Positions 18,000 to 30,359 of a stretch of DNA of 64,000 nucleotides are shown here, piece after piece. Made by a program: the position numbers and the translations under genes. The notes under the pieces are model-generated. The model searched no databases, was not told where the DNA came from, and worked only from the letters and a program-made list of their open reading frames with translations. Numbering within the stretch: the stretch's first letter is position 1; each line of letters begins with the position of its first letter. Source of the DNA: Escherichia coli (lineage in GTDB: Bacteria > Pseudomonadota > Gammaproteobacteria > Enterobacterales > Enterobacteriaceae); the NCBI RefSeq assembly GCF_009931435.1, contig NZ_CP043414.1. One strand, 5' to 3'.

Positions 18000-18422
18000 T
18001 TACGGTGTTACCCCTTTTTTTAAAAGAATATTCCCGTACTTCGCTCGTTCGCCTGTGATAACGATCGCAAAGGCTTTTTGCGCCCGCTCATAAAACGCAA
18101 AACGATTGATGCGGATGATGTCAGGACAGGGGGCTTGTAGTGAAAGCGCATTACGATAACGTCGTTCTACTTCAGGATCGAGAGTGTCACCTTCTACCGC
18201 CGCCATCATCACCAGCGGCGGTGCATAACTGTCCAGTTCAAATAACGGGATAATCGCCTGGAGTAAGTCGCTCACCAACAGGCCATCAGCACGGATCACC
18301 TGCGGTCCCATCGAATGGGCGGGAAAGTGAGCATCGGAAAAAATAATTTCATCTCCATGTCCCATCTCTGCCAGCACTTTCAATAGTTCGGGAGAAATTA
18401 ACGGCGAAATTGTTTTCAGCAT
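18000..18422 (-). CDS. fucU: L-fucose mutarotase FucU
   Basis: 140 aa RbsD/FucU family; synteny. Confidence 0.9.
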
Positions 18423-19950: not shown

Positions 19951-21726
19951 TTAACGCTTGTACAACGGACCGTAGTTCTGGCAAGCGCGGTAATCCAGGC
20001 CTTCAATATCCATGCCGTGCGCAGCCCAGGCAGAAGGACGATACACTTTGGTCTCTTCAACGTTGTGCATACATACCGGGATACGCAGCATGGAGGCGAG
20101 AGTGATAAAGTCTGCGCCAACGTGGCCGATGGTCAGAACCCCATGGTTAGCGCCCCAGTTCGCCATTACCGAGTACACATCCGTAAACGGCCCTTTACCG
20201 GTGAGGCGCGGTGCAAACCAGGTGGTTGGCCAGGTTGAGTTGGTGCGTTTGTTGAGGATGTCATGCACATCCTTCGGTAACTCAACGCTCCAGCCTTCCG
20301 CGATTTGCAGTACCGGTCCCAGGCCTTTGATGATGTTGACACGGGTCATGGTGAACGGGACACCGCCTTCAGTAAGGAAGCGGGAAGAGTAACCACCGCC
20401 ACGGAAATATTCGTGGATAGCCGGGCACCATTCGGTCGCGGCGAGGCAAGCGTCAGCCTCTTGCTGAGAGATTTCCCAGTGCGGCTTCATCGTCGGTTTA
20501 CCTTCGCTGTCGCGTTGTTTACAGGATCCGTCCAGCGCAGCAGAACCGGAGTTGATCAAGTGGATGATGCCGTGTTCTGCCAGTCCGTCCAGTTTATGCC
20601 CCGTTACTCGCTCAATTGCTTCTGGTGACCAGTAGGTACGCACATCGGCAAATACCTGAGCGGTACCGGTGAGCTGGTGGCCCATTAGCATTGCCACGCC
20701 GTTAAGACTGTCGTTTTCGGTCGCCACGACGAAGGGTTCACGCACGCCATTCCAGTCAAATGAACTGTTAAGGATCGCTTCGGCGGTGTCGCCATTGGGA
20801 TATTGATCGGTCCAGTGACGTTGTCCCTGGAAGCCCGCAGCGATGGCGTTGTAGCCAAGTGATTCTTCCACGCGACCAATATCGGCCAGTTTGCTGTTGC
20901 CTTGCATCATGTCGCGGATACACATCGCCATCAGTAAACTTTCGCGTAGAACTGCGCGGCTTTGCTCGGCATTGCGTTGATACTGTTTGTTATTTTCATC
21001 TTCGCCATAGCGGAAGTTTTTATCAGCCCAGGCCAGCGCCATTTCCAGTTCTGCTTCGTCGTAAATCTTCTGATCAATACGGCGACGCAGTTCGGTCATA
21101 TCCACCGCCTGGACTTTCATTCCCAGCCAGGATTCAAAGAAGTTGTGGTCAACGATGGAACCGGCGATCCCCATCGAAACGCCGCCCAGCGACAGATAGC
21201 TTTTACCTTTCATACTGGCGACTGCCAAACCGGCGCGGGCAAAGCGCAGCAGTTTTTCTTCAACGTCGGCAGGAATCGATGTGTCATCGGCATCCTGAAC
21301 GTCATGACCGTAAATGGAGAATGCCGGGATGCCTTTCTGGCTGTGAGCTGCCAGAGCCGCTGCCAGGTAAACAGCGCCGGGACGTTCAGTGCCGTTAAAG
21401 CCCCAAATGGCTTTCGGGCGGGTAGGGTCCATGTCAATGGTTTCACTGCCATAGCACCAGCAAGGCGTTACCGTAATGGTGAGGCCTACATTCTGGCTGC
21501 TGAATTTTTCTTCGCAAGCAGCAGCTTCAGCCATACCCGCGATACAGGTATCGGAAATGACACACTCGACGGCAGCTCCGCAGGCATGGCGCAGTTTCTC
21601 GGTCAGCAGTGCGGCCGTAGCTTTCGCCATATTCATTGTTTGTTCTTCAAGCGACTCACGAACACCCATGCGACGACCGTCAATAACCGGGCGGATACCA
21701 ATTTTCGGTAACGTATTAATTTTCAT
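19951..21726 (-). CDS. fucI: L-fucose isomerase FucI
   Basis: 591 aa; [19 protein letters not shown]-type N-terminus. Confidence 0.9.
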
Positions 21727-21808
21727 CAGGATTCCTCATCTCGCTTTATTGGCGCTCTGCTAAGGCGGAGAAAGGAAACCACCGAAGCAGTAGTATTGGT
21801 CATTATTT

Positions 21809-21824
21809 GCTAACTCGAGTTAGC
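21809..21824. promoter_or_regulatory. 16-bp perfect palindrome GCTAACTCGAGTTAGC (copy 1), candidate operator
   Basis: Exact self-complementary 16-mer with central CG, in fucI/ABC-operon divergent intergenic region. Confidence 0.35.
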
Positions 21825-21868
21825 TTAGGTTTGTAGGCTTTTTATGCACAACTTTTTTGTTGTTGAAA

Positions 21869-21884
21869 TGTGAGGGGCTTCACG
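21869..21884. promoter_or_regulatory. CRP-like site TGTGAGGGGCTTCACG
   Basis: 9/10 match to TGTGA-N6-TCACA half-sites. Confidence 0.3.
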
Positions 21885-22047
21885 AGAAGTGGTTAAAATA
21901 CGATCTCTGTCAAATTATTATTTAGCGGGATAAAAATAAATTTTACGTATAATCAAATGGTTATTAGATTTTAATGGTTATGCATCACAGTTTTAACTCA
22001 AATGATTTGGCTAATTTGTATACCTAAAATAGCTTTAAAAGGCGATC

Positions 22048-22063
22048 GCTAACTCGAGTTAGC
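22048..22063. promoter_or_regulatory. 16-bp perfect palindrome GCTAACTCGAGTTAGC (copy 2), candidate operator
   Basis: Identical to copy 1, 239 bp away, ~130 bp upstream of ABC ATPase start. Confidence 0.35.
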
Positions 22064-22195
22064 AAAATGCGAAGAATAGATTGATACGATGAATATTTAT
22101 TCAAAGGTTATTCGTATCACAGTGGAGATGGCTTTAGTAGCGACGTTTATGCCGTACTTCACATTTTCAGTTTCTGATTATTGAGGAAAGCTGCA

Positions 22196-23695
22196 ATGTC
22201 CGAAACATTTTTGCAAATGAAGCATATCACCAAACGCTTTCCTGGAGTGTTGGCGCTTAATGACGTGCAATTTACCCTACGCCGGGGCGAGGTTCATGCA
22301 TTATTAGGTGAAAATGGTGCAGGAAAATCTACATTAATGAAAATTTTGTCGGGGGTTTATCAACCTGATGAAGGCGAAATAATTTTTGAAGATAAATTAG
22401 TCTCATTTTCTGATCCGTTAAGTGCGCAAAACGTAGGTATTACTATTATTCACCAGGAATTTAATTTATTTCCCGAGCTTACAGTAGAAGAAAATATTTT
22501 TATCGGCAGGGAGTTTTGTAAAAAAAATCGCTGGCGTCTGGATGAGAAACAGCAACGCAAGGCGACGATTGAAATTTTGCAAAAATTAAATTTGGCGATC
22601 AAACCAGATACTCTGGTTGCCGACCTTACGGTAGCTCAACAACAGATGGTAGAAATTGCCAAGGCCATTTCGGTTAACGCCAGGATTCTCATTATGGATG
22701 AACCTACTGCGGCGTTAACAGAAACTGAAATTGAAAGCTTATTTCGCGTCACCCGGTTATTGAAAGAACAGGGGACCGGCATTGTGTATATATCCCACCG
22801 TCTGGAAGAGTTGGCGCTAATTGCCGACCGCGCGACTGTAATGCGTGATGGTCAGTACATCAGCACAGTAGATTATGAGTGCGTAAAAATCAGCGATCTG
22901 ATTGCCATGATGGTTGGTCGCGATTTAGGGAATATCTATCCCCGCCGCGAGGCCATACAGCAGCGGATGCCGGTTCTGGAGGTCAACGGACTGACGCGCA
23001 AAGGCGTACTGAACGATATTAATTTTACGCTTTATCGTGGCGAGATCCTCGGCTTTGCCGGACTGATGGGGGCAGGTCGTACTGAACTTGCGCGTGCGAT
23101 TTTTGGTGCGGACTCCATTGACAGCGGAACGCTAAAGTTAAATGGTAAGGAAACCGTTATTAAAGATATTTCGGATGCTATTCAGCAGGGAATTAGTTAC
23201 CTGACGGAAGACCGAAAAAAAGAAGGGTTGGCACTGAATTTATCTGTTGAACGAAATATTATGTTAGGAAATTACCCTGAGTATTCCGATCGTTTTGGGA
23301 ATGTCGATTCGCGTCGTTGCCAACAAACCAGTGAGGAACAGGTAAAAGCGTTAAGGATTAAAACGCCAAATCTTGAACAGGCTGCATTAAATCTAAGTGG
23401 AGGAAATCAGCAGAAAATTATAATTGCACGTTGGGTGTGTAAAGATACTGATATTTTAATCTTCGATGAACCCACTCGCGGCATTGATGTTGGCGCCAAA
23501 CTGGAAATCTATGAGTTAATGAATCGCCTGGTGGCAAAAGGGAAATCAATCATCATGATCTCCTCTGAATTGCCGGAGGTGTTAGGAATGTGCGACCGTA
23601 TTTTAGTGATGCGCAGTGGTCGAATTACTGGCGAACTTAGCGCAAATGAAGCGACACAAGAAAAAATCATGCAATACGCGACGTTAGAGGATTAA
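22196..23695 (+). CDS. Sugar ABC transporter ATP-binding protein, tandem ABC domains (RbsA/MglA-like)
   Basis: Two Walker A (GENGAGKST; GLMGAGRTE) and two signature motifs (LSGGNQQK); ATG 22196 with GAGGA RBS. Confidence 0.85.
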   Translation: MSETFLQMKHITKRFPGVLALNDVQFTLRRGEVHALLGENGAGKSTLMKILSGVYQPDEGEIIFEDKLVSFSDPLSAQNVGITIIHQEFNLFPELTVEENIFIGREFCKKNRWRLDEKQQRKATIEILQKLNLAIKPDTLVADLTVAQQQMVEIAKAISVNARILIMDEPTAALTETEIESLFRVTRLLKEQGTGIVYISHRLEELALIADRATVMRDGQYISTVDYECVKISDLIAMMVGRDLGNIYPRREAIQQRMPVLEVNGLTRKGVLNDINFTLYRGEILGFAGLMGAGRTELARAIFGADSIDSGTLKLNGKETVIKDISDAIQQGISYLTEDRKKEGLALNLSVERNIMLGNYPEYSDRFGNVDSRRCQQTSEEQVKALRIKTPNLEQAALNLSGGNQQKIIIARWVCKDTDILIFDEPTRGIDVGAKLEIYELMNRLVAKGKSIIMISSELPEVLGMCDRILVMRSGRITGELSANEATQEKIMQYATLED

Positions 23696-23698
23696 ATT

Positions 23699-24682
23699 AT
23701 GACTATCTCTGTAACCTCTCCAGACAGCAATAATAAGAAAATAAAGATAAATAAAGAACTTTTGATGCGCCTTGCGCCTCTTTTTAGCTTAATTATATTA
23801 GTGCTGTTTTTTAGTTTCAGCTCTCCCTTTTTCTTTAATACCGAAAATATCATGACGATTGCTCTGCAAACGTCGGTTATCGGCATTATGGCCATTGGGG
23901 TAACTTTCGTCATTATTACCGCGGGCATCGATCTTTCATTGGGTTCCGTGGTGGCTTTTTCTGGTGTCGCCGTGGGGATTTGCGCCACACTGGGCCTGCC
24001 GCTGCCAGTGTGTATTATTGCCGGTGTTTTAGCCGGTGGAATGTGCGGCTATGTGAATGGTTTGTTGGTCACTAAAATGACTATTCCACCGTTTATCGCT
24101 ACCTTGGGCCTGATGATGTCCGTCAGAGGTATCAATATGGTGATGACCGACGGGCGCGCCATCTATTTTGCCGATTACCCGATGTTCAAAACGCTCGCTC
24201 AGGGACGCTTGTTTGATGTGCTGCCTTATCCTGTTTTCTACCTGGTCATTGTGGCGCTTGTCGGCGCTTACATCCTGAAGAAAACGGTTATTGGTCGCTA
24301 TGTCTATGCCGTAGGCAGTAATGAAGTTGCTGCTCATCTTTCTGGTATTAAAGTTCAGCGCGTGAAAATTTTCGTCTATGCCTTCTGTGGTTTATTAACC
24401 GGGATTGCGGGTGTCATTCTCGCTTCTCGTCTCAACTCCGGACAACCGACGGTGGGTGTGGGTTATGAGCTGGAAGCTATTGCTGCGGTAGTGATCGGCG
24501 GAACCAGCTTAATGGGCGGTATTGGCACTATTGGCGGCACAATCATTGGCGCTTTCATTATGAGTGTACTGAAAAATGGCCTCAATTTAATGGGGGTCTC
24601 TCAGTTCTGGCAAATGGTCGCGATGGGCGTAGTTGTGGTCGCTGCCGTTTACCTCGATACATTACGCAAAAAGATTCGTTGA
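23699..24682 (+). CDS. Sugar ABC transporter permease (RbsC/AraH family)
   Basis: ~10 TM segments, family layout. Confidence 0.85.
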   Translation: MTISVTSPDSNNKKIKINKELLMRLAPLFSLIILVLFFSFSSPFFFNTENIMTIALQTSVIGIMAIGVTFVIITAGIDLSLGSVVAFSGVAVGICATLGLPLPVCIIAGVLAGGMCGYVNGLLVTKMTIPPFIATLGLMMSVRGINMVMTDGRAIYFADYPMFKTLAQGRLFDVLPYPVFYLVIVALVGAYILKKTVIGRYVYAVGSNEVAAHLSGIKVQRVKIFVYAFCGLLTGIAGVILASRLNSGQPTVGVGYELEAIAAVVIGGTSLMGGIGTIGGTIIGAFIMSVLKNGLNLMGVSQFWQMVAMGVVVVAAVYLDTLRKKIR

Positions 24683-24755
24683 CTTAGGCTCCCTGTTTTA
24701 TCGGGAAACAACTGCCCTGACGTTAAGGGTGATTCACTCAGAACGGAGTACAACA

Positions 24756-25706
24756 ATGAAAACCAGGCATTTTATCTATGCGTTATCTCTGCTGGCTTGC
24801 GTAAGTTCCAGCGCACTGGCGAAGGATTTAAATCTTCCGGTTGTTAGTAAAGGTTTCCAACATGAATTCTGGCAAACCGTAAAAATGGGGACTGAAGCTG
24901 CGGCTAAAGAGTTGGGGGATAAAACCAGCTATGTTGGCCCGGCTGATGAAACGCAAATAGCCGAGCAAATTCAGTTAGTCGAAAATGCGATGGCGCAGAA
25001 ACCGAATGGCTTGCTTCTGGCAGCCCTCGACGCGAATGCGCTCGCCCCACTGGTAGAAACGGCAAATTCACGCGGTATCAAAGTGGTGACCTTTGATTCA
25101 GGCATCAATTCAGACATTCCGGTGAGTTTTGTCGCCACCAATAACCGTAAAGCAGGTGCTCAGGCAGCTGATGCCTTAGCTGCGCAGGTAAATAATAAAG
25201 GGAAAGTTGGGATTATCGCGCACGTTGCAGGAACATCTTCCGCTATTGAACGCTCGGAAGGCTTCATGGAGCGTATGAAAGAAAAATATCCTGACATTAA
25301 AGTCTTACCCGTTCAGTACAGCGATGGTGACCCGCAAAAAGCGATGGATAAAACTATCGATATGATTCAGGCCAATCCCGATCTTGCTGGGATCTATGGC
25401 ACCAATGAAGGTTCAACGCTCGGGGTGGCGAATGCCATTGATAGCCAGAATCTGAAAGGTAAGGTGAAGGTCATTGGTTTTGATAGTACGGAAGCGATTA
25501 TTAACTTCCTGAAGAACGGGGTCATTCAGGGCTTTGTTGTTCAGGATGCATACCAGATTGGCTATCAAGGGATCAAAACGTTGAACGCGGCCCTTTCGGG
25601 GCAAGCCGTTGAAAAAGAGATCGATATTCCCGTGAAATTTGTTAATGCCGAGAATATTAACACGCCAGAAATCGACAAACTCCTGCACCCATTCGGTAAG
25701 AAATAA
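24756..25706 (+). CDS. Periplasmic sugar-binding protein (RbsB-like, type I PBP) with signal peptide
   Basis: MKTRHFIYALSLLACVSSSALA signal peptide; GGAG RBS; ORF-track upstream extension overlaps permease and is rejected. Confidence 0.85.
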   Translation: MKTRHFIYALSLLACVSSSALAKDLNLPVVSKGFQHEFWQTVKMGTEAAAKELGDKTSYVGPADETQIAEQIQLVENAMAQKPNGLLLAALDANALAPLVETANSRGIKVVTFDSGINSDIPVSFVATNNRKAGAQAADALAAQVNNKGKVGIIAHVAGTSSAIERSEGFMERMKEKYPDIKVLPVQYSDGDPQKAMDKTIDMIQANPDLAGIYGTNEGSTLGVANAIDSQNLKGKVKVIGFDSTEAIINFLKNGVIQGFVVQDAYQIGYQGIKTLNAALSGQAVEKEIDIPVKFVNAENINTPEIDKLLHPFGKK

Positions 25707-25759
25707 AAAAATTGGGGATGAATTCTCATCCCCGTTATCTCCAGCGTCAGGGAGGCTTT

Positions 25760-27340
25760 ATGCACAACGGTTATTTTCTCGGTGTCGATGTCGGATCGGC
25801 CAGTGTCAGGGCAGGCGTTTACAGTGCCAGTGGCCACAGGCTGGCATTCGCTACTGCGCCCGTCTCCCAGTTTCGCCCTGGCGGCGAGCGTGTCGAACAG
25901 TCTTCGGCAGAGATCTGGCAACAAGTTTGTAAAACGGTGAAAGAGGCGACAGCTTTGGCAGGCATCCCCATTTCCGCAATTCGCTCACTGGGTTTTGACG
26001 CTACCTGCTCGCTGGTTGTTCTTGATGAACAAGGCCAGGGTTTAGCGGTTTCGTCCGGTGGATCTGCGAATCACGACATTATTATGTGGATGGATCATCG
26101 TGCAACTGTCGAGACGGCGCAGATTAACGCAACGAAGGATCCCGTATTGCGCTACGTTGGCGGCGAAGTGAGCGTCGAGATGGAGTTACCAAAGTTACGT
26201 TGGTTGAAGACGCATCTACCGCAAACCTGGCAGGCCGCTCATCGCTTTTTCGATCTGGCGGATTTTCTGGTCTGGAAAGCAACAGGGCGAGACGTCGCGG
26301 GATTGTGCACGCTAACGTGTAAATGGAATTATCTGGCTCATGAACAACGCTTTAGCCATAGCTTACTGGAATCGGTAGACCTGACCGACATGCTCGAAAG
26401 AATTCCCGCCGAAATTCTTCCGCCTGGTGCTGCCGTGGGAACTTTAACTGCCACAGCTGCTGAAGAATTAGGATTAACGACCAATGTTATCGTGGCCAGT
26501 GGTTTGATTGATGCCCATGCCGGTGGCATGGCGCTGGCTGGCGCGCAGCCATCAGGAACGCTGGCATTGATAAGCGGAACGTCGAATTGCCACATGTTGT
26601 GCAGTGAAAAAGAAATATTCACCCCTGGCGTCTGGGGGCCATACTGGTCGGCCATGTTGCCAAATTACTGGCTAACTGAAGGCGGGCAAAGCGCCGCAGG
26701 GGCGCTGGTGGAGTGGACGCTTCAGGAGTCCGGGGCAAGCGCAAATCTTTTTAACAAGGCGCAGCAACGCGGGTGTCATCCGATTCAACTGATTAATGAA
26801 TGGGTAGCCGCCCTGGAAGCTAACGAGTCAGAACCCACACGAAATTTACATGTGCTTGCCGATCATCACGGCAACCGTTCGCCACGAGCGCGGCCCGATG
26901 CCAGAGGCAGTGTTTATGGCTTAACACTGGAGCGTGGTGAAAATCAGCTCGCGCGGCTTTATCTTGCGACTTTACAGGCAATAGCCTTTGGCACCAGACA
27001 TATTATTGAAACTCTGCGGGAAAATGGGCATACCATTACCCGATTAACATTATGTGGTGGTGCAACGCACAACCCTTTATGGCTACGCGAATATGCAGAC
27101 GTGACAGGTTGCGATATCCACCTGATGCAAGAAGAAGATGCCGTTACGTTGGGCGCAGCAATTAGCGGCGCTGTTGCCAGCGGAGCATGGGGGGATTTTA
27201 CATCTGCGTGTAAAGCAATGGTTGAAGCCGGAGAGGTTATTCAGGTAAATCCACAACGCCGTGAATTTTTAGAGCGTAAATACCGGGTTTACCTGACGCT
27301 TTGGGAGCAACAACAGGCGGTTAACCAACTGATGCAATAA
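25760..27340 (+). CDS. FGGY-family carbohydrate (pentulose-type) kinase
   Basis: GVDVGSASVRAGV N-terminal FGGY motif; ~526 aa; GGAGG RBS. Confidence 0.8.
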   Translation: MHNGYFLGVDVGSASVRAGVYSASGHRLAFATAPVSQFRPGGERVEQSSAEIWQQVCKTVKEATALAGIPISAIRSLGFDATCSLVVLDEQGQGLAVSSGGSANHDIIMWMDHRATVETAQINATKDPVLRYVGGEVSVEMELPKLRWLKTHLPQTWQAAHRFFDLADFLVWKATGRDVAGLCTLTCKWNYLAHEQRFSHSLLESVDLTDMLERIPAEILPPGAAVGTLTATAAEELGLTTNVIVASGLIDAHAGGMALAGAQPSGTLALISGTSNCHMLCSEKEIFTPGVWGPYWSAMLPNYWLTEGGQSAAGALVEWTLQESGASANLFNKAQQRGCHPIQLINEWVAALEANESEPTRNLHVLADHHGNRSPRARPDARGSVYGLTLERGENQLARLYLATLQAIAFGTRHIIETLRENGHTITRLTLCGGATHNPLWLREYADVTGCDIHLMQEEDAVTLGAAISGAVASGAWGDFTSACKAMVEAGEVIQVNPQRREFLERKYRVYLTLWEQQQAVNQLMQ

Positions 27341-27404
27341 GACAAAAGTTGAAAATACTTTTATGATTGTGATTTGACGTCTGGATGTTAACTGGGAAAT
27401 ACCT

Positions 27405-28403
27405 ATGGCTAAAACAGTAGAGCAGATAGCCAGCGACCTGAATTTATCGGTTACGACCGTGCGACTGGTGCTAAATGGAAAAGCGGAACAATATCGAATC
27501 AGCGTCAAAACCCAAACGCGTATCAATGAATATGTTGAACGCTATGGTTATATCATTAATCATTCCGCTCGCAGCCTTAAGCTTAACAAAACTGATACAT
27601 TAGGGTTGATTGTTCCCAACATATCCAACGTCTTTTTTGCTACGCTGGCAGAAAAACTCGAACAACGCTGTCGACGTTCCGGATATCAACTTACAATCAG
27701 TTGCACTTATGATGATGTTGACTATGAAAATAAATTGACGAAAGCATTTATCGCACGAAATGTAGATGGTCTTTTTATTGTTCCTTCGACGCTGGAAAAT
27801 CAGCAGCATCATTTACGCAAAATTCGTAAGCCAATGGTTTTACTCGATCGTGATTTTAAATATACCGATAACGCATTGGTAGAGAGTAATAATATTTCTG
27901 GCGGAGAAAAGCTGACGCAAAATATTCTTGAGGCCGGGCAGGCTCCAGTATGGTTTTTGCTGGGAGATGCCGGTTTGCCGAGTATCAGCGATCGTCTGAC
28001 AGGTTATTTGAATGCGTTGGCAAAAAAAGGGATTACCCATCGCGATTGGGTGCGGGAAGGTCCGGTAAATACTCCGGAAGGCGGCTATGTCATTATGGAA
28101 AAACTCATTGAAGAGCAGGGATGTCCGCAGGCATTTATCGCCTCGTCTTTACCTGTGCTTGAAGGCGCTGTCCGCGCGATTCGCGACCGTCTTGGCGCTG
28201 TACCGCCAGAAATCAATATTGGCACTTTCGATGAACATCCTATGCTGGGATTTCTCGCCAACAATGTCTGGTCAATGCAGCAGGATGAAAATGCCTGGGC
28301 AGAAAAAGCGTTCGAAATGATGTTAAGCGCGATCGAAGAAAGACCAGTAAAAAAAACAGTTAAAGTAGAAATGAAATTAATTAAGCGCATAAGAAAAAAA
28401 TAA
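27405..28403 (+). CDS. LacI-family transcriptional regulator
   Basis: N-terminal HTH (TVEQIASDLNLSVTTVRLVLNG) plus periplasmic-binding-like effector domain. Confidence 0.85.
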   Translation: MAKTVEQIASDLNLSVTTVRLVLNGKAEQYRISVKTQTRINEYVERYGYIINHSARSLKLNKTDTLGLIVPNISNVFFATLAEKLEQRCRRSGYQLTISCTYDDVDYENKLTKAFIARNVDGLFIVPSTLENQQHHLRKIRKPMVLLDRDFKYTDNALVESNNISGGEKLTQNILEAGQAPVWFLLGDAGLPSISDRLTGYLNALAKKGITHRDWVREGPVNTPEGGYVIMEKLIEEQGCPQAFIASSLPVLEGAVRAIRDRLGAVPPEINIGTFDEHPMLGFLANNVWSMQQDENAWAEKAFEMMLSAIEERPVKKTVKVEMKLIKRIRKK

Positions 28404-28535
28404 TAATCGCCAAAAGATATCAGGCTACTGAACAATGATATTCAGTGGCCTCCCCTTACTAAAAATAACCCCGTCTTCATTTGCGGTGCTGTTTTACGCA
28501 ACAAGGCGAGCTGAAACTGTATCTGGAGAATAGAA

Positions 28536-29183
28536 ATGGAAAGAACACGTTTATCCCGTGAAATAATTGAAACCTGTCTGGAAATGACGCGCCTTGGGTT
28601 AAATCAGGGGACAGCGGGGAATGTCAGCACACGTTTTGAAAACGGCATGTTGATTACTCCCAGCGGTATTCCTTATGAAAGAATGACGGAGAATATGATT
28701 GTCTATGTTGATGGCAACGGCAAATACGAAGAAGGTAAGATTCCTTCCAGCGAATGGCGTTTCCATATGGCGGCCTATCAAAGCAGACCGGATGCCAACG
28801 CGGTTGTTCACAATCATGCCGTTCATTGCACGGCAGTTTCCATTCTTAACCGACCGATCCCTGCTATTCACTACATGATTGCGGCGGCTGGCGGTAATTC
28901 TATTCCTTGCGCGCCTTATGCGACCTTTGGAACTCGGGAACTTTCTGAACATGTTGCGCTGGCTCTCAAAAATCGTAAGGCAACTTTGTTACAACATCAT
29001 GGGCTTATCGCTTGTGAGGTGAATCTGGAGAAAGCGTTATGGCTGGCGCATGAAGTTGAAGTGCTGGCGCAACTTTACCTGACGACCCTGGCGATTACGG
29101 ACCCGGTGCCAGTGCTGAGCGATGAAGAGATTGCCGTAGTGCTGGAGAAATTCAAAACCTACGGGTTACGGATTGAAGAGTAA
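28536..29183 (+). CDS. fucA: L-fuculose-1-phosphate aldolase
   Basis: Near-complete match to FucA from memory (..GTAGNVS..HNHAVHCTAVSILNR..); 215 aa. Confidence 0.9.
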   Translation: MERTRLSREIIETCLEMTRLGLNQGTAGNVSTRFENGMLITPSGIPYERMTENMIVYVDGNGKYEEGKIPSSEWRFHMAAYQSRPDANAVVHNHAVHCTAVSILNRPIPAIHYMIAAAGGNSIPCAPYATFGTRELSEHVALALKNRKATLLQHHGLIACEVNLEKALWLAHEVEVLAQLYLTTLAITDPVPVLSDEEIAVVLEKFKTYGLRIEE

Positions 29184-29207
29184 TTTCGTAAAGCAACAAG
29201 GAGAAGG

Positions 29208-30359
29208 ATGATGGCTAACAGAATGATTCTGAACGAAACGGCATGGTTTGGTCGGGGGGCTGTTGGAGCTTTAACCGATGAGGTGAAACGCCGTGGTTAT
29301 CAGAAGGCACTGATCGTCACCGATAAAACGCTGGTGCAATGCGGCGTGGTGGCGAAAGTGACCGATAAGATGGATGCTGCAGGGCTGGCATGGGCGATTT
29401 ACGATGGTGTAGTGCCCAACCCGACAATTACTGTCGTCAAAGAAGGGCTTGGTGTATTCCAGAGTAGCGGTGCGGATTACCTGATCGCTATTGGTGGTGG
29501 TTCTCCACAGGACACGTGTAAAGCGATTGGCATCATCAGCAACAACCCGGAATTCGCCGATGTGCGCAGTCTGGAAGGGCTTTCCCCGACCAATAAACCC
29601 AGTGTACCGATTCTGGCAATCCCCACCACAGCAGGCACTGCGGCAGAAGTGACCATTAACTATGTGATCACTGACGAAGAAAAACGACGCAAGTTCGTTT
29701 GTGTTGATCCGCATGATATCCCGCAGGTGGCATTTATTGACGCTGACATGATGGATGGTATGCCGCCTGCGCTGAAAGCCGCGACGGGTGTCGATGCGCT
29801 CACTCATGCTATTGAGGGGTATATTACCCGTGGCGCGTGGGCGCTAACCGATGCACTGCACATTAAAGCGATTGAAATCATTGCTGGGGCGCTGCGAGGA
29901 TCGGTTGCTGGTGATAAGGATGCCGGAGAAGAAATGGCGCTCGGGCAGTATGTTGCGGGTATGGGCTTCTCGAATGTTGGGTTAGGGTTGGTGCATGGTA
30001 TGGCGCATCCACTGGGCGCGTTTTATAACACGCCACACGGTGTTGCGAACGCCATCCTGTTACCGCATGTCATGCGCTATAACGCTGACTTTACCGGTGA
30101 GAAGTACCGCGATATCGCGCGCGTTATGGGCGTGAAAGTGGAAGGTATGAGCCTGGAAGAGGCGCGTAATGCCGCTGTTGAAGCGGTATTTGCTCTCAAC
30201 CGTGATGTCGGTATTCCGCCACATTTGCGTGATGTTGGTGTACGCAAGGAAGACATTCCGGCACTGGCGCAGGCGGCTCTGGACGATGTTTGTACCGGTG
30301 GCAACCCGCGTGAAGCAACGCTTGAGGATATTGTAGCGCTTTACCATACCGCCTGGTAA
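29208..30359 (+). CDS. fucO: L-1,2-propanediol oxidoreductase (lactaldehyde reductase)
   Basis: Fe-ADH family; MANRMILNETAWFGRGAVGAL N-terminus. Confidence 0.9.
   Translation: MMANRMILNETAWFGRGAVGALTDEVKRRGYQKALIVTDKTLVQCGVVAKVTDKMDAAGLAWAIYDGVVPNPTITVVKEGLGVFQSSGADYLIAIGGGSPQDTCKAIGIISNNPEFADVRSLEGLSPTNKPSVPILAIPTTAGTAAEVTINYVITDEEKRRKFVCVDPHDIPQVAFIDADMMDGMPPALKAATGVDALTHAIEGYITRGAWALTDALHIKAIEIIAGALRGSVAGDKDAGEEMALGQYVAGMGFSNVGLGLVHGMAHPLGAFYNTPHGVANAILLPHVMRYNADFTGEKYRDIARVMGVKVEGMSLEEARNAAVEAVFALNRDVGIPPHLRDVGVRKEDIPALAQAALDDVCTGGNPREATLEDIVALYHTAW

Follow-up and report, generated by a model that had tools for sequence, protein, structure and literature searches.

How is the L-fucose/D-arabinose locus of Escherichia coli strains of the B type controlled, and does a CRP-like motif between its two divergent operons take part in that control? 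In the window, the whole 64-kb stretch of E. coli DNA that was analysed, a gap of 469 bp separates the leftward operon fucI-fucK-fucU-fucR from a rightward set of genes that opens with a ribose-type ABC transporter:

19951-21726, minus strand: fucI, first gene of the leftward operon fucI-fucK-fucU-fucR (TIGR01089, 1246 bits; E. coli B RefSeq annotation)
22196-23695, plus strand: ABC ATPase gene, first of the rightward genes
22196-28403, plus strand: rightward genes for the ABC ATPase, permease, binding protein, DarK (an FGGY pentulose kinase) and a regulator
27405-28403, plus strand: gene of the LacI-family, Cra/FruR-like regulator (332 aa)
28536-30359, downstream of the regulator gene: fucA-fucO

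The locus is an E. coli B/BL21-type L-fucose/D-arabinose cluster, flanked by E. coli genes on the left (csdA, gcvA, ygdD, rlmM, fucR, fucU, fucK, fucI) and on the right (fucA, fucO, xni). It has the same fucA-darK-fucI-fucK order, with a D-ribulokinase within the fuc cluster, as the E. coli B locus in which DarK is described as that D-ribulokinase (PMC12307932; PMC6150544); a further study names this arrangement 'variant 2' of the fuc operon and finds BL21 fucI higher on fucose than on glucose (PMC10221146). Accessible papers on the E. coli B-type locus deal with gene content, growth and induction and describe no promoters, operators or CRP sites, so that the regulatory region of the ABC-type fuc locus appears to be undescribed. 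A literature search for the locus turned up neither a mapped start site nor CRP footprinting, ChIP or crp/cya expression results, and nothing specific on its regulator, its operators or its control by CRP; published start sites were also sought for BL21, whose transcriptome paper, on BL21(DE3), is based on tiling arrays.

Sequence similarity with K-12 breaks off at 21738, 12 nt before the ATG of fucI, and returns at 28557, 22 nt into fucA. The intervening 6.8-kb segment (21739-28556), made up of the control region, the ABC transporter, darK, the regulator gene and the first 21 nt of fucA, replaces fucP and the control region of K-12; FucP is not encoded anywhere in the 64-kb window, and the 546-bp fucA-fucP intergenic region of K-12 has no sequence homology in the window's control region. 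FucA is just 91% identical to its K-12 counterpart, as against 99% for FucI, FucK, FucR and FucO and 100% for FucU, which marks the right-hand junction as a recombination scar within fucA. The fucI-ABC intergenic region is 99% identical to that of E. coli B and is found in 381 of 5426 complete E. coli genomes (~7%), always on the chromosome. In E. coli B-StaR (L001, 15809-17233), the B strain that served for comparison, an IS1 element splits fucA, which is intact in the window. The 132 bp that separate the regulator gene from fucA (28404-28535) have no homology to K-12 PfucAO and no operator copy, and they contain an 11-bp-stem hairpin (AGGCTACTGAA...TTCAGTGGCCT) without a T-tail; on these grounds, fucAO may be read through from the ABC operon.

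The original prediction had placed a 9-of-10 match to the CRP consensus between two palindromes in the fucI-ABC gap, and a check of the sequence bears this out:

21869-21884, plus strand: CRP-1, TGTGAGGGGCTTCACG, core TGTGA-GGGGCT-TCACG, centre 21876.5, within the 22-mer 21866-21887 (AAATGTGAGGGGCTTCACGAGA)
21809-21824: O1, perfect palindrome, at about -9 to +7 of the predicted fucIKUR promoter and overlapping its -10/+1
22048-22063: O2, perfect palindrome, at about +6 to +21 of the predicted ABC-operon promoter

CRP-1 agrees with TGTGA-N6-TCACA at nine of ten core positions, the sole mismatch being the final G, and its left flank (AAATGTGA) matches the consensus fully. The 16-bp palindrome GCTAACTCGAGTTAGC that flanks it occurs in two perfect copies, 21809-21824 and 22048-22063, against 0.14 expected. 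As a bare pattern, the CRP motif is no better than chance in this window: with up to one mismatch, the core has 2 matches against 1.83 expected, and 59 of 100 shuffles equal the window's count. Any claim for CRP-1 must therefore rest on its position and conservation. The other such match (18054-18069, TGTGATAACGATCGCA) lies within the fucU coding sequence and was taken as chance. Sites were scored by consensus mismatches and conservation; the spacer of CRP-1 in E. coli, GGGGCT, is G+C-rich, unlike the usual spacers of strong CRP sites, and counts against it.

Conservation was assessed by scanning species-representative genomes with the ABC binding protein, which yielded 55 loci. The layout of the window (fucU-fucK-fucI leftward; ABC-(darK)-regulator-fucA rightward) recurs in 29 species-level genomes of about 10 genera: the E. 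coli of the window, E. whittamii, about 16 Citrobacter, Pluralibacter, Enterobacter hormaechei, Pseudenterobacter, Huaxiibacter, Lelliottia, three Buttiauxella, three Atlantibacter, one Serratia, a strain labelled C. freundii and one Enterobacteriaceae strain. Citrobacter makes up many of these genomes, so that independent lineages number fewer than 29. Identity of the intergenic region to that of the window is 62-68% in Citrobacter and 38-47% in the other genera, and 71 of its 469 columns (15%) are invariant across the 29 genomes.

Within this diverged background, all ten half-site columns of CRP-1 (TGTGA, TCACG) are invariant in 29 of 29 genomes and none of its six spacer columns is, the spacer existing in 20 versions. 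The pattern of five invariant, six variable and five invariant columns was reproduced in 0 of 20,000 shuffles of the invariant columns, and no other 16-nt stretch of the 29-genome alignment has it. CRP-1 is moreover the only CRP match with at most one mismatch in each of the 29 intergenic regions and lies exactly 60 bp from O1 in every one; 380 of the 381 E. coli genomes that carry the locus keep a 101-bp core at 99% identity or more. The rest of the alignment has few footprints, all of them sharp: O1 with an adjoining TAG, ACAA at 21848-21851, CRP-1, TCACA at 21985-21989 with G 21977, CAAA and TTTG within 21999-22009, ATAg.TT at 22029-22035, and O2.

Invariant half-sites one helical turn apart around a variable spacer are the signature of a dimeric factor, and these half-sites are those of CRP; conserved half-sites with a drifting spacer lift CRP-1 above chance. 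That it is a functionless chance match, which the count of 2 against 1.83 expected would allow, is contradicted by the invariance of the half-sites, the drift of the spacer and the fixed position across about 10 genera, and has a negligible probability in our judgement. The 16-base motif is thus very probably a real CRP binding site, as judged from its conservation. The proposal that it subjects one or both divergent transcripts to catabolite control draws support from the same invariant half-sites and drifting spacer, and further support from its being the unique match in all 29 regions and from the lac P1-like spacing to promoter hexamers described below.

One column does not follow from CRP constraint alone: the final G of TCACG (21884) departs from the consensus yet is invariant in 29 of 29 genomes, which hints at an overlapping requirement. 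This G, and the fact that in most genera CRP-1 runs straight into a further conserved block, would suit a different dimeric regulator, for example FucR or some unknown factor, binding a repeat whose likeness to a CRP site is coincidental. Such a coincidence, with five plus five invariant positions, a free 6-bp spacer and a 9-of-10 match to TGTGA-N6-TCACA, would arise by chance about 3 times in 100,000. No enterobacterial factor other than CRP is known to use the TGTGA-N6-TCACA motif. The LacI-type regulator already has palindromes of its own, and the published FucR motif, centred on CGGTCA, differs (PMC11011485). Recognition of the repeat by another regulator is in our view highly improbable, and we retain CRP as the factor that binds it.

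The block next to CRP-1 is a separate element:

21888-21916: GAAGTGGTTAAAATACGATCTCTGTCAAAT, adjoining CRP-1 at about -73 to -101, candidate box for FucR, a DeoR-type activator

This block is near-invariant in Escherichia, Citrobacter, Enterobacter, Pluralibacter and Lelliottia and absent from Buttiauxella, Atlantibacter and Serratia. The published FucR motif has a conserved CGG..CA (..AAAACGGTCATT) and is centred on CGGTCA; K-12 itself has such a box on the upstream side of the CRP site (PMC11011485). The Pluralibacter version of the block, GAGCGGTCAAA, resembles K-12 OFucR3, ttaagagCGGtCAtt (PMC11011485), whereas the E. coli version is degenerate as a FucR box (TGGTTA against CGGTCA). In a direct comparison with the motif, the window reads GAAGTGGTTAAAAT, with both of the 'most conserved' C positions changed, and Pluralibacter reads GAGCGGTCAAAA; with the block confined to part of the genera, its identity as a FucR box is possible.

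For which promoter, then, is CRP-1 placed? On the fucI strand, two hexamer classes are kept across genera, TTGTnn (-35-like) and TAWGCT (-10-like), and they predict the following elements:

21846-21851, minus strand: predicted -35, TTGTGC, starting 17 nt after the CRP-1 16-mer; its TTGT is conserved (aCAA invariant on the plus strand)
21822-21827, minus strand: predicted -10, TAAGCT, which is TATGCT in distant genera; T(-12), A(-11) and T(-7) are invariant
21815, minus strand: predicted fucIKUR start, an A, placed by the hexamer positions and by analogy with lac P1, giving an 89-nt leader

The spacer between the leftward hexamers is 18 nt in 29 of 29 genomes, and the TTG of the -35 is invariant. 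Read on the fucI strand, the region is CGTGAAGCCCCTCACA - 17 nt - TTGTGC - 18 nt - TAAGCT - aactcg - A, and the lac promoter, read from the K-12 genome, is TGTGAGTTAGCTCACT - 17 - TTTACA - 18 - TATGTT - 6 - A. The two therefore share one layout (site-17-(-35)-18-(-10)-6-start), and in both the last position of the CRP core is the only one of ten to mismatch (TGTGAGTTAGCTCACT and TGTGAGGGGCTTCACG); both also have a LacI-family operator, predicted in the case of fuc, at the start region. The lac CRP site is centred at -61.5, so that a start at 21815 would place CRP-1 at -61.5, a Class I position. The spacing to the conserved hexamers equals that of lac P1, with a start that is predicted and leftward hexamers that are weak, matching at 3/6 each against 5/6 and 4/6 in lac P1. 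We infer from these positions that CRP-1 is placed for the leftward fucIKUR promoter (about -61.5) and not for the ABC operon (about -165), a narrower assignment than the original prediction had made. CRP-1 is probably a genuine cAMP-CRP site that would act as a Class I, lac-type activator of the promoter of fucI-fucK-fucU-fucR at about -61.5.

A Class II site at -41.5 is the other arrangement that the E. coli sequence alone would permit, since an A/T-rich hexamer (CATAAA/ATAAAA, minus strand, near 21842-21847) stands roughly where the leftward -10 would have to be. The stretch 21830-21846 is conserved in no other genus, whereas the hexamers of the -61.5 arrangement are; the Class II arrangement was rejected on this lack of conservation, and its probability is very slim.

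A scan for consensus promoters did not list the proposed hexamers. It reported two AT-rich candidates (plus strand, 21893-21921; minus strand, 21996-21968), a number like that in shuffled sequence (2 against 1.7 expected), which were rejected as main promoters for want of conservation of their -10 hexamers between species. The 89-nt leader predicted for fucI has a conserved hairpin of the form CUGCu..GGUGG-loop-CCGCC..aGCAG (21757-21795, minus strand), which 12 sequences from Escherichia and Citrobacter retain and in which some changes are compensatory (alifold -13.4; single-sequence MFE -21.7); an Rfam scan of 21600-22300 gave no match at E up to 1.

The right-hand part of the intergenic region has its own set of predicted elements:

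21974-21989: CRP-2, ATGGTTATGCATCACA, centre 21981.5, a weak CRP-like site matching at 6/10 in the window
22007-22012, plus strand: predicted -35, TTGGCT, 17 nt after the CRP-2 16-mer; TTTG is invariant
22030-22035, plus strand: predicted -10, TAGCTT; TAg.TT is conserved, and the spacer is 17 nt in 29 of 29 genomes
about 22042-22043, plus strand: predicted ABC-operon start (G at 22042, 6 nt after the -10), which would place CRP-2 at -60.5/-61.5

This right arm mirrors the left: ATGGTTATGCATCACA - 17 - TTGGCT - 17 - TAGCTT - 6 - G(22042). The 29 genomes show no change in the right half of CRP-2, TCACA, or in the critical G of its left half, at 21977, and in other genera the site matches at 7-8 of 10 positions (for example TCTGTTCAGTGTCACA). 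CRP-1 and CRP-2 are 105 bp apart in the window and 104-105 bp apart in all 29 genomes. We accordingly infer, from position and conservation, that this weaker site would serve the ABC operon. The hexamer TAAAAT (22025-22030) is the better rightward -10 in E. coli; it was demoted to an alternative because distant genera do not keep it and because CRP-2, then at about -55.5, would lie on the wrong face of the helix.

The K-12 fuc region offers a parallel for such a site. Both K-12 fuc operons need CRP, and OCrp2 of PfucAO, which is essential, consists of one perfect and one degenerate half (ttagtTGAaccaggTCACAaaa) (PMC11011485); CRP-2 likewise has one degenerate half-site. The K-12 sites OCrp0-OCrp3 of fucPIK/fucAO belong to the same pathway, and CRP acts there with a pathway-specific regulator. 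The K-12 promoters serve fucP and fucA, whereas those predicted in the window serve fucI and the ABC operon; compared with K-12, the window adds a LacI-type regulator with two predicted operators and has no fucP.

The two palindromes have the features of LacI-family operators: a length within 14-20 bp, a central CG, a position at predicted promoters and a regulator gene in the same operon. O1 is conserved in 29 of 29 genomes. O2 has decayed beyond three mismatches in two of the 29 species, and wherever both palindromes are detected (27 of 29 loci) they are 238-240 bp apart, 239 bp in the window. The regulator scores 235 bits against NCBIfam TIGR02417 and 217 bits against the Cra model NF008452, both below cut-off, and its closest solved structures are those of Cra (E 4e-37). 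Like O1 and O2, the Cra box (GCTGAAnCGnTTCAGC) is 16 bp long and has GCT/AGC on the outside and CG at its centre; differences lie in the inner bases of the half-sites (AAC in O1/O2, GAA in Cra) and in the context, which is fructose and central carbon flux for Cra and fucose/D-arabinose genes for the regulator of the window.

The same palindrome, identical or with one mismatch, lies between the orthologous regulator gene and darK in four Vibrio loci and upstream of the ABC operon in Sodalis and Acerihabitans. It thus travels with the regulator, which supports the palindromes as operators of that regulator; on this comparative evidence O1 and O2 are probable operators of the product of 27405-28403. 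These loci are arranged differently: Sodalis and Acerihabitans have fucIKUR downstream of the ABC operon, which faces fucA, and in the four Vibrio loci the regulator gene faces darK. In all three groups a -10-like hexamer abuts the palindrome and is preceded, at a distance of exactly 40 nt, by a TCACA half-site, the replica promoters being those of the ABC operon in Sodalis and Acerihabitans and of darK in Vibrio, where one locus (L036) has a CRP-like site matching at 9/10 (TCTGATTTATATCACA). This recurrence of the module makes the CRP-to-promoter spacing an old feature of the promoter family.

A third copy of the operator was observed in Lelliottia (L021, 13778-13793) and Huaxiibacter (L020, 14168-14183), about 95 bp upstream of a DUF2961 (PF11175) gene that is followed by an MFS_2 sugar transporter gene. 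DUF2961 is equivalent to glycoside hydrolase family GH172, among whose members are D-arabinofuranosidases, and this copy would fit a D-arabinose-related regulon.

The spacing of the two operators bears on a further reading, in which CRP does bind CRP-1 but has its main role elsewhere than in Class I activation of fucIKUR, acting on the distant ABC operon or bending the DNA of an O1-O2 loop. CRP-1 does lie between identical operators whose spacing of 238-240 bp is conserved in 27 of 29 loci, and its centre is 105 bp, or about 10 helical turns, from that of CRP-2. An IHF-like motif, aATCAAatggTTA (21951-21963), is likewise conserved between the two CRP sites, halfway from one divergent promoter to the other; it fits the IHF consensus WATCAANNNNTTR, and its T21953, A21955 and T21962 are invariant across the 29 species. 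The lac CRP site, moreover, sits inside the O1-O3 loop. Set against this, CRP-1 would be at about -165 of the ABC promoter, which has a CRP-like site of its own at the canonical distance; the regulator, at 332 aa, is of the size of Cra, without the C-terminal extension of LacI and with no sign of tetramers; and the exact lac-like spacing to the conserved leftward hexamers makes direct activation the simpler account. We regard a main role in looping or at a distance as unlikely, and direct Class I activation of the fucIKUR promoter remains the preferred reading.

Under this preferred reading, CRP bound at CRP-1 in the absence of glucose would recruit RNA polymerase to the intrinsically weak fucIKUR promoter, and the Cra-like regulator, bound to O1 across the -10/+1 region, would block that promoter until freed by a sugar inducer, probably free L-fucose or D-arabinose. 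The block beside CRP-1 may bring in FucR as a co-activator. The ABC-darK-regulator(-fucAO) operon would be the mirror image, with CRP-2, -35 TTGGCT, -10 TAGCTT and O2 downstream of the start, so that the region would consist of two back-to-back lac-like modules, each requiring CRP and both shut by one repressor. The lac operator O1 is centred at +11, whereas the fuc O1 overlaps the predicted -10/+1; the fuc region further differs from lac in having a predicted Cra-like repressor instead of LacI and in the doubling of the module in mirror image for the divergent operon.

More tentatively, all these elements may be read jointly as an undescribed, ancient cassette of 470 bp, in which two mirror-image lac-like modules (CRP site-17-(-35)-17/18-(-10)-operator) are governed by a Cra-like repressor that senses free L-fucose/D-arabinose; this repressor, and not FucR, would be the master switch of the ABC-type fuc locus, and an O1-O2 loop would enclose both CRP sites and the IHF-like site. 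We consider this combined reading possible but rather doubtful. A 1988 report on E. coli B is said to have found the pathway to be induced by the free sugars instead of fuculose-1-phosphate, and all of its enzymes to be expressed jointly in constitutive mutants. If true, the cassette reading would explain both the induction by free sugars and the joint constitutive expression.

In summary, CRP control of sugar operons is textbook knowledge, and CRP-1 in itself is for that reason unsurprising; its value lies in its context, a fucose/D-arabinose cluster that occurs in E. coli B/BL21 and in about 7% of the complete genomes of E. coli and whose ABC-type arrangement is the standard one in Citrobacter, Enterobacter and their relatives. 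The result is a predicted map of the control region, with two CRP sites, two operators, two promoters and one candidate repressor, which could account for the older induction genetics of E. coli B. Should the cassette reading be true, BL21 would have a native pair of promoters inducible by L-fucose/D-arabinose and repressed by glucose. The map could matter both for the use of fucose in the gut and as a new inducible promoter system in BL21.
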